A DNA stretch of 64,000 bases from the NCBI GenBank assembly GCA_964016885.1, contig OZ024751.1, forward strand, positions 40,796,001-40,860,000, in the 5' to 3' direction. The stretch's first letter is position 1. Each line of letters starts with the position of its first letter. A program made the translations under genes and the position numbers. Below are positions 23,418-63,552 of the stretch, one piece after another. The DNA comes from Eledone cirrhosa (Eukaryota). The notes under the pieces are model-generated. The model was not told the DNA's origin. It did not search any database and worked only from the letters and a program-made list of their open reading frames with translations.

Positions 23418-23823
<406 letters not shown>

Positions 23824-43104: not shown

Positions 43105-43386
<282 letters not shown>

Positions 43387-49170: not shown

Positions 49171-49215
<45 letters not shown>

Positions 49216-49341
49216 AAGTTTTATTTAAATTGTTGGGTTACAACGAGTAAATATTTATAACTGATATAAAAGCACTCAATAAGTATTTGGAGTATATTTA
49301 CGATATTAAATAAATGGAAACTATATTTATAAAACCATATT

Positions 49342-49407
49342 TATTTCATTATATATATTTCAGGGATATCATATTAAAAATATGGTATGCCTTCATCAGA
49401 CAAAATA
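49342..49407 (-). ncRNA. Type-I hammerhead ribozyme (mirror copy)
   Basis: Reverse complement of 49590-49655. Confidence 0.8.
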
Positions 49408-49589
49408 CAATATAAACAGTCTTATAAATAGATAGATTTGACATACCTTACAACTTCAACTTCCATTTAAAAAGTTGATTTGGTAGACTACCAAATCAAC
49501 TTTTGGTAGACTACCAAATCAACTTTTTAAATGGAAGTTGAAGTTGTAAGGTATGTCAAATCTATCTATTTATAAGACTGTTTATATTG

Positions 49590-49655
49590 TATTTTGTCTG
49601 ATGAAGGCATACCATATTTTTAATATGATATCCCTGAAATATATATAATGAAATA
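49590..49655 (+). ncRNA. Type-I hammerhead ribozyme, PLE-type with palindromic stem III
   Basis: Stem I UAUUUUGU / AUGAAAUA; CUGAUGA 49598-49604; stem II AGGcAUAcCAUAUU-uuu-AAUAUGaUAUcCCU; GAAA 49636-49639; stem III UAUAUA; predicted cut after AUA at 49647. Confidence 0.82.
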
Positions 49656-49695
49656 AATATGGTTTTATAAATATAGTTTCCATTTATTTAATATC

Positions 49696-49808
<113 letters not shown>

Positions 49809-51642: not shown

Positions 51643-52776
51643 TTTTCTTCTTCTTCGCCCACTTATTCCCGAGAGGGTCGTGGGGGCAGACTCCTCCTCA
51701 AACATTCCTTCCAGCAGGTCCTGTCAAAAGTAACCATCAAAAGTGACTCTCCAGTGATTCTTTCCTCAGACATTCTAACCACATGCCCATAGTATCTGAG
51801 CTGTGATCTCTCAATTCGGAGAAGTAGCGGCTCTACCTGGAGTGACTCTCCAGTGATTCTTTCCTCAGACATTCTAACCACATGCCTATAGTATCTGAGC
51901 TGTGATCTCTCAATTCGGAGAAGTAGCGGCTCTACCTGGAGTGACTCTCCAGTGATTCTTTCCTCAGACATTCTAACCACATGCCTATAGTATCTGAGCT
52001 GTGATCTCTCAATTCGGAGAAGTAGTGGCTCTACCTGGAGTGACTCTCCAGTGATTCTTTCCTCAGACATTCTAACCACATGCCTATAGTATCTGAGCTG
52101 TGATCTCTCAATTCGGAGAAGTAGCGGCTCTACCTGGAGTGACTCTCCAGTGATTCTTTCCTCAGACATTCTAACCACATGCCTATAGTATCTGAGCTGT
52201 GATCTCTCAATTCGGAGAAGTAGTGGCTCTACCTGGAGTGACTCTCCAGTGATTCTTTCCTCAGACATTCTAACCACATGCTTATAGTATCTGAGCTGTG
52301 ATCTCTCAATTCGGAGAAGTAGCAGCTCTACCTGGAGTGACTCTCCAGTGATTCTTTCCTCAGACATTCTAACCACATGCTTATAGTATCTGAGCTGTGA
52401 TCTCTCAATTCGGAGAAGTAGTGGCTCTACCTGGAGTGACTCTCCAGTGATTCTTTCCTCAGACATTCTAACCACATGCCTATAGTATCTGAGCTGTGAT
52501 CTCTCAATTCGGAGAAGTAGCGGCTCTACCTGGAGTGACTCTCCAGTGATTCTTTCCTCAGACATTCTAACCACATGCCTATAGTATCTGAGCTGTGATC
52601 TCTCAATTCGGAGAAGTAGCGGCTCTACCTGGAGTGACTCTCCAGTGATTCTTTCCTCAGACATTCTAACCACATGCCTATAGTATCTGAGCTGTGATAT
52701 CTCAATTCGGAGAAGTAGTGGCTCTACCTGGAGTGACTTTCCAGTGATTCTTTCCTCAGACATTCTAACCACATGC
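51643..52776 (-). mobile_element. 5'-truncated RTE LINE containing ~10.4 in-frame copies of a 99-bp ORF segment
   Basis: Unit LQVEPLLLRIERSQLRYYxHVVRMSEERIT resembles the RTE post-RT motif RxQLRWxGHVxRM. It ends PPRPSRE* plus (GAA)n, with an imperfect TSD CCACATGCAC.CTGTCYCAGTA (51621 and 52769). Confidence 0.9.
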
Positions 52777-53629
52777 ACGCTGTCCCAGTACTTTATTTAA
52801 TTTAATAAAACAAATTCTAAAAATATAGGTAGAGGGATATTTAACGGTTCTCACAGATGTTTTTAAAAAAAATATTTCAAGTATGAGTTACTCATGTATT
52901 ATTAATTAAATTAAATTAAGAAACGAACATTCCGTGTGTAATGGTTAACATGAAAGAGTAGTATAATGTTTATATGATTATACATTTTCGGACAATTAAC
53001 CTCGACTTCAGAGATGCAGAACTTTCAATGTTAAGAAAATTGGCCTCAAACGTAATAGAAACCGGAAGCTAAAAGTTTTTGCTTGTCACGTGGGGTATGG
53101 TGAAATATTGAGATGTGACAGCTATGGCATAACGCACTCATCCGTGAAAATCTGTTTAATACGCATGTGTTTAGATTCAGTCTAATGAGTATGGTGCTTC
53201 TGCTGTCTTTTGTTCTTTATTTTGATATTTTCTGACACGGTAATACAACTTATTCCATTATTTTTTTTAAAGTTACCCATTTAAATGTCTTTTTTTCAAC
53301 TTGTTATATAATCTCCCACGTGACAATACTGGAAGATCTAAACATTGCTAAGTTATAAATGGTGTTAGTGATATTCTTTTATGTATGACAGCTATTCTTG
53401 TTGTTACACTGGTTATTAGGGGCACTACTGTCTATATTACTTATCCCTATTGTATCTATGGATACTTAACTCCTAGTCGAGTCGTAGGGGCGCCGTAGTG
53501 ACTCATGACGTGTTTTGGGCATTTTAAATCTGGCGTAATGCACCTAATTTCTAGGTCTGAACAGACTTGATTTCTTCCAGAGAAGGGAAGAGAGAGTGAT
53601 AGAGAGGAAGTGAGGAAGAGATATAGAGG

Positions 53630-55086: not shown

Positions 55087-55287
55087 GAAGGAAATGTGGT
55101 AAGAAACCAGGTGGACCATAACACACCAAAGTACTCAATACTTGGGGTAGTAGAGTGGGTAATAGGAAACAGTAAGACCCCGACGGCTGAGCTCAAGCCG
55201 TTTCGACGGCTAATTCTGGAATTAGCCGTCCAGAATTAGCCGTCGAAACGGCTTGAGCTCAGCCGTCGGGGTCTTACTGGTTCCTAT
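55081..55287 (-). mobile_element. PLE-like 'GACCCCGACGGC' family insert with 58-bp inverted arms and ~80-nt tail
   Basis: Arms 55162-55219 / 55230-55287 with one mismatch. TA flanks both sides. Confidence 0.8.
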
Positions 55288-57700: not shown

Positions 57701-57775
<75 letters not shown>

Positions 57776-57898
57776 GGAGGTGAGTTTTGTTGTAGTACAA
57801 TAAAGCAATGCAGATATCGGATAAGAAGCACTCTACAGTTTGTAGGACTGGAGTATACATAATATAGAAGATCAAAAGATGGTTAAAGGAGTTCCATG

Positions 57899-57966
57899 TA
57901 TTTTATTATGCGCATTTCAAAAACAAACATCATGCAATAATATTTGTGTTTTCATCAGATAAAACA
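57899..57966 (-). ncRNA. Type-I hammerhead ribozyme (mirror copy)
   Basis: Reverse complement of 58094-58161. Confidence 0.83.
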
Positions 57967-58093
57967 GGAGGACATGATATGAAGGCTAAAAAACACGTGT
58001 GGATAGTTCAGTTTTAAATCAACATATAATTGATATGTTGATTTAAAACTGAACTATCCACACGTGTTTTTTAGCCTTCATATCATGTCCTCC

Positions 58094-58161
58094 TGTTTTA
58101 TCTGATGAAAACACAAATATTATTGCATGATGTTTGTTTTTGAAATGCGCATAATAAAATA
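58094..58161 (+). ncRNA. Type-I hammerhead ribozyme, PLE-type with palindromic stem III
   Basis: Stem I UGUUUUAU / AUAAAAUA; CUGAUGA 58102-58108; 15-position stem II AAAcACAAAUAUUAU-ugc-AUGAUGUUUGUuUUU; GAAA 58142-58145; stem III UGCGCA; predicted cut after AUA at 58153. Confidence 0.87.
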
Positions 58162-58191
58162 CATGGAACTCCTTTAACCATCTTTTGATCT

Positions 58192-58237
<46 letters not shown>

Positions 58238-58239
<2 letters not shown>

Positions 58240-58340: not shown

Positions 58341-58534
58341 ATAGGAAAAAGCATGACCCCGACGGCAGAGCTCAAGCCGTTTCGACGGCTATTTCTAGTG
58401 CAGAAATAGCCGTCGAAACGGCTTGGGCTCTGCCGTCGGGGTCATACTTTTTCCTATTACCCACTCTACTACCCTAAGTATTGAGTACTCTGGTGCGTTA
58501 TGGTCCACCTGGTTCCTTACCACATTTCCTTCGT

Positions 58535-59302: not shown

Positions 59303-59489
59303 TGTTTCTACTTTAGGCACAAGGCCAGCAATTACCCAGTGCATTACTGGTACTTTATTTTATCGACCCCGTAAGGATGAAAGGCAAAGTCAACCTCGGC
59401 GGGATTTGAAATCAGATCGTAAAGGGACGTAACTATGCTGGAAAGCATGGCGTCCGACCCTCTACCGATACTGCTAATCCACCGCCCTA
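59303..59489 (-). mobile_element. SINE A in a GATA satellite, 18-bp TSD
   Basis: TSD ATATGACTGATAGATATT at 59285 and 59490. Confidence 0.93.
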
Positions 59490-59548
59490 ATATGACTGAT
59501 AGATATTGATAGATAGATATATCATATATATATATGACTGATAGATAT

Positions 59549-59729
59549 TTGTTTCTACTTTTGGCACAAGGCCAGCAATTATTTCAGTGTATTACTGGTA
59601 CTTTATTTTATCGACCCCGTAAGGATGAAAGGCAAAGTTAACCTCGGCGGGATTTGAACTCAGTCCGTAAAGGGACGTAACTGTGCTGCAAAGCATGGCG
59701 TCCGACCCTCTACCGATACTGCCAATCCC
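59549..59729 (-). mobile_element. Second SINE A in the same GATA satellite
   Basis: Flanked by CTGATAGATA. Confidence 0.92.
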
Positions 59730-60200: not shown

Positions 60201-60325
60201 AGGCCTTAACTGAGATAGATACATGACAGAAAGATATATTGCAGATAGACATATGAGAGAGATATTTATCACAAAGAGATAGACATACATAGAGAGATGT
60301 ATGATAAACATTAATACCAGTATAA

Positions 60326-60513
60326 GGGCGGTGGAGTGGCAGTATCGGTAGAGGGTCGGACGCCATGCTTTGACGCATAGAGTTACAGCCCTTTCCATTC
60401 TGAGTTCAAATCCCGCCGAAATTAACTTTGCCTTTCATCCTTACGGGGACGATAAAATAAAGTACCAGTAATGTACTGATTAATTGCTGGCCTTGTGCCA
60501 AAAGTAGAAACAC
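60326..60513 (+). mobile_element. SINE A, full length, 15-bp TSD
   Basis: TSD TTAATACCAGTATAA at 60311 and 60514. Confidence 0.95.
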
Positions 60514-60884
60514 TTAATACCAGTATAATATTCGGAATAATGCATTTAAATTTTATATAAAAAAAAAATTGTTCGAAATGTTAGACGAATTAATTACTTT
60601 GCGGTTTATATTCTAGCTGTTTGCGTTCAAATCTCGCTGAGGTAAACTTTACTTTTCATTTTTGCTGCCTCAATACAATAAACTACCTGTTACCTTCTGC
60701 GGTGGGGTATGTCATTGACAGCTAATTATTTAATCAAATTATAAATGATGAAATTCTAAATTATGAAAGGCAGGTGTAATATAAGTAGGATTCGAACTCA
60801 AAACCTAATTGACATAATTAAATACCGAATTATTCTTCTCTGTTTATTCTGTCATCCATCACACTTCCAATTACTGTATTAAAG

Positions 60885-63489: not shown

Positions 63490-63552
63490 ATAGGAAAATG
63501 TATGACCCCGACGGCAGAGCTCAAGCCGTTTCGACGGCTATTTCTGGACTTC
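63490..63552 (-). mobile_element. Solo short arm of the 'GACCCCGACGGC' family
   Basis: (TA)n-GGAAAATGTATGACCCCGACGGCAGAGCTCAAGCCGTTTCGACGGCTATTTCTGG. Confidence 0.75.

Follow-up and report, generated by a model that had tools for sequence, protein, structure and literature searches.

A head-to-head pair of hammerhead-bearing pseudo-LTR ends in Eledone cirrhosa, likely twin-primed from one RNA of a Hydra-clade Penelope-like retrotransposon

Penelope-like elements (PLEs) typically have truncated copies in inverted orientation and carry a tail at a single end (PMC8557442, PMC3846280, PMC2377424). In Penelope of Drosophila, transcription starts inside the pseudo-LTR (pLTR; PMC2377424). The table drawn up for the Hydra clade of PLEs lists hammerhead motifs, among them those of Penelope-13_HM, which has the motif on both strands, and of one octopus family, Hydra-1_Obim (Craig et al. 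2021, PMC8557442). The hammerheads of metazoan PLEs are described as type I motifs with a weak palindromic helix III, located in the pLTRs and mostly in truncated copies (Cervera and De la Pena 2014, PMC4209133). The same account gives hammerhead pairs on opposite strands, 100–700 bp apart, for Schistosoma. It also reports action as a dimer and a low activity in vitro, and circles made by hammerheads were proposed there for metazoan PLEs in 2014 (PMC4209133). In vitro, Poseidon of Anolis shows two internal start sites of reverse transcription, which bound the tail, and both strands of AT-rich DNA are cut and extended (Frangieh et al. 2024, PMC11167929). A dimer is predicted for this element, uncut RNA serves as template and no ends are found at the ribozyme cut (PMC11167929).

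We found no report of twin priming, of a strong stop or of a rule of one short and one long end in literature on PLEs that lies mostly outside the subscription journals and the older Penelope papers, and parts of this may be in print. Twin priming of L1 is said to have been described by Ostertag and Kazazian in 2001: priming on a single RNA from two target ends leaves a head-to-head inversion. The pairs described here differ from that case in having both putative priming sites at fixed internal positions and cDNAs that usually overlap, giving a true palindrome rather than a simple inversion.

The locus studied lies in a stretch of 64,000 nt of Eledone cirrhosa DNA (the window). We think it quite probable that its palindrome consists of two 5′-truncated pLTR ends of a Hydra-clade PLE, placed head to head in a (TA)n run and likely twin-primed from one RNA that was copied back to a likely capped start. 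With the Hydra clade, as described in PMC8557442, it shares the single RT/GIY-YIG frame of its parent element, the (TA)n targets, the hammerhead in the pLTR, the inverted truncated 5′ copy and the one-ended tail. With the hammerheads of PMC4209133 it shares the type I fold, the weak palindromic helix III, a long helix II, the location in a pLTR and the pairing on opposite strands. Unlike the hammerheads in that account, helix II is longer still, has a conserved 1 × 1 loop after 3 bp and begins mostly with an A-U rather than a G-C pair, and helix I has 6–8 bp of U-A pairs. As in Poseidon, two 3′-end sites bound the tail and no ends are piled at the ribozyme cut. Poseidon belongs to another clade, and in the parts of its description drawn on here the two start sites are not linked to two target ends, no fixed 5′ stop is given and the inverted structure is left unexplained (PMC11167929). 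As a single locus the palindrome is one of thousands of insertion stubs and matters little. Its family leaves a countable record of how the inverted structures of PLEs form and of what PLE hammerheads do, questions called open in the literature.

The palindrome and its hammerhead motifs

The features of the locus are collected in Table 1. The first base of an arm is called q1 (58033 on the plus strand, 58027 on the minus strand), and positions in the sample of copies follow the full-length copy L032, which is 3 nt longer within the ribozyme. Positions 57868–58027 and 58033–58192 are exact reverse complements, which bears out the 325-bp palindrome described in an earlier note on this DNA (160 bp per arm and a spacer of 5 nt). 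With two mismatches allowed, the match between the arms extends to 57854/58206. The palindrome is asymmetric, the left arm being about 88 nt longer than the right arm, and is flanked on both sides by (TA)n runs. An assembly artefact was rejected, as contigs of independent runs show the same class of junction (none spans the studied locus itself). A microRNA precursor was rejected as well, all Rfam matches being below the gathering score.

Table 1. Features of the palindrome (positions in the window) and the full-length element pair of the family
Feature	Position	Strand	Basis
(TA)n run, left half of target site	57702..57771	none	sequence; nearly all family ends adjoin (TA)n
Long arm: pLTR and tail of Hydra-clade element, from fixed start 58027 to distal 3′ end 57772	57772..58027	−	94% identity over 258 nt to pLTR and tail 5′ of the L032 ORF; end class L
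Tail, between the two 3′-end sites; left (minus-strand) arm only	57772..57858	−	in full copies the tail leads directly into the ORF
Type I hammerhead motif, core 57952–57958, predicted cut between 57907 and 57906	57899..57966	−	mirror of the plus-strand motif
Junction (5 nt) of the two arm starts; non-element sequence, last base G before the right arm	58028..58032	none	junction classes
Short arm: pLTR, from fixed start 58033 to proximal 3′ end merging into (TA)n	58033..58199	+	end class S
Type I hammerhead motif, predicted cut after 58153	58094..58161	+	sequence, folding, covariation
(TA)n run, right half of target site	58200..58238	none	sequence
L032, inverted pair of full elements	L032:901–9836, contig C1 111.376–111.385 Mb		one intact 821-aa frame

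On the plus strand, stem I is formed by 58094–58101 with 58154–58161 (8 bp including one G-U), and the core by CUGAUGA (58102–58108), GAAA (58142–58145) and the triplet AUA (58151–58153). Stem II (58109–58141) has 3 bp, a 1 × 1 loop and 11 bp with wobbles, that is, the 15 positions with G-U pairs counted in the earlier note, and stem III (58145–58152) is self-complementary. An extension of stem I by CAUGU and ACAUG had also been put forward; the stem and both strings are present (58084–58088 and 58161–58165), but base 58161 belongs both to ACAUG and to the final pair of stem I. The core nucleotides claimed for both strands were all located. With our own descriptor, the window contains four hammerhead motifs, the studied pair and a second pair at 49399/49598, as compared to 0.02 on average over 100 shuffles. 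Rfam gave no hammerhead match at the gathering score, and a scan by E-value gave generic hairpin matches only. The term textbook minimal, applied earlier to these motifs, goes too far, as stem II with its 15 positions is far longer than the 3–7 bp in the rows of the Hydra table and opens with A-U in place of the usual G-C (PMC8557442). Together with the palindromic stem III of 8 nt, this stem II makes a hammerhead that resembles none in those rows, that of Hydra-1_Obim included (PMC8557442).

Closure of stem III within a monomer is predicted to cost about 3 kcal/mol, as compared to −10.5 kcal/mol for an intermolecular duplex of the octamer. These values support the assignment of the hammerhead as a dimer-type motif, which the earlier note had made from its self-complementary stem III. 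Folding of the hammerhead would need a partner or a protein (as was observed for the anole element, PMC11167929). For a palindromic read-through RNA, the predicted structure is a long hairpin (−288 kcal/mol) in which all the hammerhead pairs have a probability of 0.00. In the predicted fold of a single arm alone, stem I reaches 0.01 and the distal part of stem II 0.6–0.87. The RNA had been expected either to cleave itself or to collapse; the models agree with the collapse into a hairpin and make a switch between the two unlikely.

Covariation was assessed in 14 motifs of the studied and sister families, where 95.6% of the cells are paired, a figure that leans high as the rows were chosen by a pairing descriptor. 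Double changes are seen in 7 of the 18 pairs (5/6 in stem II), so the stem covariation among homologues whose absence would have spoken against a hammerhead is present. None of 500 shuffles reaches the score, and slid controls give 35–63%. Two of the three distal pairs, which the descriptor does not demand, also covary. One sister motif precedes a frame that is 56% identical to that of L032, and the structure has therefore been retained across well-diverged families. The core is retained in 143 of the 150 family arms that span the hammerhead. Judged from the sequences, the two hammerheads are most likely the pLTR ribozyme of the element itself, copied uncut into both arms and carried as passengers without a host role at the locus. 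The special RNA device implied by the earlier note is not supported; the end of a retrotransposon is present twice, in opposite orientations, and belongs to a family with over 10,000 ends.

The parent family and its full-length element

A genome search gave 40 scored candidates, each of which matches the arm at 93–100%. Exact probes of the tail and the pLTR (26-mer and 22-mer) matched 10,394 and 10,113 times, respectively, genome-wide, and reversed controls gave none. A whole element, L032, was found among 10 loci that were extended to 10 kb. It consists of a pLTR with tail, an 821-aa frame (stop to stop), a 3′ UTR of about 1 kb and a second pLTR, with a unit of 3,688 nt. As a whole, L032 forms an inverted pair of full elements, 9 kb in length, in which one end is short and the other long; the frame of the second element is broken by a frameshift.

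The L032 protein contains the motifs RWT, DKT (residue 122), FDI, YRDD, CxCX5C (658), CxxC (758) and CxH (786), with no GxKF/Y, and a GIY-YIG-like LIY..YFG is located near the C end. It also carries an N-rich stretch, which most relatives (about 700 aa) are without. A total of 61 relatives show 31–39% identity to it, one of them from Argonauta. The D and YRDD are invariant among 44 aligned proteins, three of which match GIY-YIG of Pfam, and the RWK position varies (RWT in L032, RWR in the sister family, RWK in the relative P0001). Neighbours of the protein in the Atlas carry GIY-YIG and RVT_1. The protein itself gave no Pfam match, and no PDB match was obtained with either the protein or its profile as the query.

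The single ORF with an RT core and with GIY-YIG at the C terminus, the pLTRs in partial tandems and inverted copies, and the tail at one end are those of an EN+ PLE. The Hydra clade is marked by DKT for DKG, the lack of GxKF/Y, CxCX5C, CxxC with CxH, insertion into (TA)n and a hammerhead in the pLTR, and all of these are found here. The unit of 3,688 nt exceeds the general size of <3 kb owing to the 1-kb 3′ UTR and the N-rich insert; this size is given for the clade as a tendency, not as a criterion (PMC8557442). By its sequence motifs, and with the Hydra clade defined as in PMC8557442, the element to which the arms belong is almost certainly a Hydra-clade PLE. It differs from the members described there, mostly <3 kb, by its unit of 3.7 kb, by RWT for RWK, by the number of its ends (over 10,000) and by a tail of about 88 nt as compared to 30–40 nt (PMC8557442). 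The family and its ribozyme variant appear to be new, and the kind of structure is already known.

Other stubs lie in the same window. The second hammerhead palindrome (49214–49699; cores 49399 on the minus and 49598 on the plus strand) has perfect 188-nt arms and belongs to a sister Hydra family. That family has the same build as the studied one, with ends 79 nt apart, a fixed start and (TA)n, and is very young (all 40 scored matches 100% identical, 827 candidates); pieces of its frame are 52–61% identical to L032. Head-to-head stubs at 55162–55287, at 58341–58457 and near 63538 represent a third family, which also lies in (TA)n and shows two ends together with a fixed start. Its copies have GAAA and a palindromic hairpin, with no CUGANGA within 90 nt upstream in the copies inspected. 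At 23536–23705, a perfect inverted repeat of 170 nt between (TA)n runs has a one-sided extension of about 60 nt and is probably a stub of a fourth family; the descriptor found no hammerhead in it. A tiny remnant of the studied family, folded back within a long (TA)n run, is located at 43289–43338.

Two 3′ ends and the pairing of the arms

The sample was taken around the first probe matches listed on contig C1 (0–59 Mb); it comprises 105 insertions with 196 arms and favours young and tail-bearing copies. The 3′ ends of the arms fall mainly at two sites about 88 nt apart, which bound the tail: 86 are at q167–180 and 101 at q257–261, with 8 arms running into the ORF and one ending elsewhere. The arms form 79 head-to-head pairs, 5 of which include a run-through arm. 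The other 74 have two terminal ends, and 70 of these combine a short with a long arm (3 long-long, 1 short-short; p = 6 × 10−17 against random pairing). The head-to-head stub is the commonest short form of insertion in the family. Arms are 99.3% identical within a pair as compared to 95.5% across insertions (41 pairs). Of 51 close pairs, 23 have arms with matching starts, 21 have a short arm that extends further 5′ than the long arm and 7 show the opposite; both arms begin at the start site in 20, as at the studied locus, and at least one does so in 39. In 9 of the 51, the long arm is without nearly all of the sequence of the short arm, which is the classic shape of twin priming. Breaks of long arms are only mildly enriched at the short priming site (9/35, p = 0.04).

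These pairs likely arose by twin priming, in which both target ends prime on a single RNA. The GIY-YIG nuclease of the element would cut both strands of the (TA)n target. The two target ends would prime at different distances downstream of the RNA start, one at about 170 nt and one at about 258 nt, and both cDNAs would run back to that start, which is likely capped. The second cDNA would stop at the first or displace it, and short homology (the start lies within a 6-nt palindrome) or a small number of added bases would join the two cDNA ends. The pairs of one short and one long arm tie in with the RT start sites found in vitro on either side of the tail, and with the cutting and extension of both strands there (PMC11167929). 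The high identity within pairs could alternatively reflect gene conversion or two RNAs of one source copy.

Likeness of the two arms would also be expected from fold-back or self-priming, in which one cDNA or antisense RNA loops at the 6-nt start palindrome and is copied onto itself. Such an origin was read from the Penelope palindromes of rotifers, with self-priming on an antisense template (Arkhipova et al., PMC3846280), and here 21 of the 54 arms that start at q1 sit in perfect fold-back junctions. We regard it as unlikely for this family. In the 21 close pairs with extra 5′ sequence on the short arm, the tail is on the long arm only; neither arm is derivable from the other, which argues against fold-back and for two priming events. 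Moreover, q1 stops arms even where the partner arm ends at another position and no palindrome forms, and a fixed start is also seen in the second and third families, which lack the 6-nt palindrome. The thousands of arms with a common start, and the close pairs that share the shape of the studied locus, might instead be taken for a separate non-autonomous element, similar to a MITE or a retrozyme, whose transcripts are processed by its hammerheads and which multiplies as a unit. The retrozymes of animals originate from pLTRs, and the stubs resemble the non-LTR retrozymes in being short, non-coding and PLE-derived with a type I hammerhead (bioRxiv 10.64898/2026.07.22.740005). They differ from the head-to-tail tandems of that report in being head to head, with no sign of spread as a unit. 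Such an element is largely refuted and very improbable: the junction sequences vary from copy to copy, no short head-to-tail tandem arrays were found among the 105 insertions, and within each subfamily the stubs have the same haplotypes as the long and the ORF-linked copies, with no separate lineage. The ribozymes also face apart on opposite strands, so no unit would be excised, and the predicted hairpin would bury both.

Two named element types were rejected on related grounds, a non-LTR retrozyme by the head-to-head pair and the lack of short tandem arrays among the 105 insertions, and a MITE or foldback DNA transposon by the unequal ends, the varying junctions and the RT-element parent. An RNA switch adopted by the host, acting by self-cleavage or by feeding a 160-bp dsRNA into editing or small-RNA pathways, would fit the two intact cores and the perfect hairpin, and read-through of any of the thousands of palindromes would yield dsRNA. 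Intact cores are normal for the family, however, and the copy is young, with up to 97.6% identity to sampled family copies. We recognised no host gene with a long open frame in the window (small exons would escape), and the ribozyme fold is unpopulated in the predicted hairpin. A host switch is accordingly the least credible of the readings weighed here, and highly improbable.

The fixed start, the long copies and the ribozyme

Both arms of the studied locus begin at the dominant 5′ stop of the family. Across the genome, 5,267 arms have their first base at most 3 nt from q1 and another 4,557 continue past it, and contigs of independent runs share the junction hot spot at q1. No excess of 5′ ends was found at the ribozyme cut with exact probes genome-wide (31 as compared to 46 at a control site, a comparison that excludes a large excess only, the two probes differing in strictness) or in the sample (3/132). 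The pile-up at q1 without a pile-up at the cut indicates uncut templates with an end at q1 for the short copies. The start site lies in the 6-nt palindrome, and q1 is the A of TTCA, which we take to be initiator-like. Copying of a cap during reverse transcription would leave an extra G, as for LINEs. A G precedes q1 in 1,443 of the 5,267 arms; in the sample, it does so in 16 of 33 non-fold-back junctions as compared to 4 of 43 other breaks (p = 1.5 × 10−4). Microhomology with the partner arm can supply some of these bases, and the signal of this added base is less marked in the second family (23/100 among the matches listed, counted by eye). On balance the sequences incline us to see q1 as the start of a capped RNA.

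The long copies behave differently. The pLTR–ORF junction has 216 exact matches, and 60 junctions were fetched, 25 of which break inside the pLTR, while 35 align past q1. None of the 35 near-full-length copies that reach q1 stops there, as against 54% expected (p = 2 × 10−12). The automatic labels of the 60 junctions (27 pass, 1 start, 32 other) were reclassified by alignment start. Three of the 35 align just 4 nt past q1; if these are scored as stops the figure becomes 3/35, still far under 54%. The templates of the long copies would therefore have been without a free end at q1, and a plain linear RNA starting at q1 leaves these copies unexplained. A same-strand neighbour within 10 kb was found for none of 100 pLTR–ORF junctions among the matches listed, so multimer sources look rare. 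In the second family, the probe for long copies matched at two places only.

One tentative reading of what the hammerhead is for, which we hold to be possible rather than probable, divides the two kinds of copy between two templates. Uncut capped RNA would give the short strong-stop stubs, and a cut in both pLTRs followed by ligation would give a 3.7-kb circle as the sole template of full-length and longer-than-unit copies. Circular templates would account both for the lack of stops at q1 in the 35 long copies and for the lack of ends piled at the cut, and the apparent rarity of same-strand tandem sources would fit them as well. Efficient strand transfer between pLTRs, or a long read-through RNA, would explain the long copies too. 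Circle-derived chimeric pLTRs were tested for by linkage, which is not reduced across the cut site (mean r2 0.256 across, 0.256 and 0.273 within; 102 arms), and this result neither favours nor excludes circles.

Sharp predictions follow from the pairing of a short with a long end, from the fixed 5′ stop and from the lack of that stop in long copies, namely a capped start at a given base, two priming sites tied to the two DNA ends, and a circular RNA with a given junction. The intact open frame of L032 suits the in vitro system published in 2024 (PMC11167929). The thousands of perfect hairpins of 150–250 bp may supply dsRNA in a group of animals in which RNA editing is known to be extensive.

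Hammerhead motifs seem to be very abundant in this genome, and the flanks of loci L005–L246 contain at least 12 further, unrelated motif families with a palindromic or long stem III. Elsewhere in the window, a SINE-like repeat occurs in several copies in both orientations (59303–59728, 60321–60512 and 60622–60699). On the minus strand at 51666–52796, a 377-aa open frame is built of a 33-residue unit and by eye resembles the C end of a LINE RT frame.
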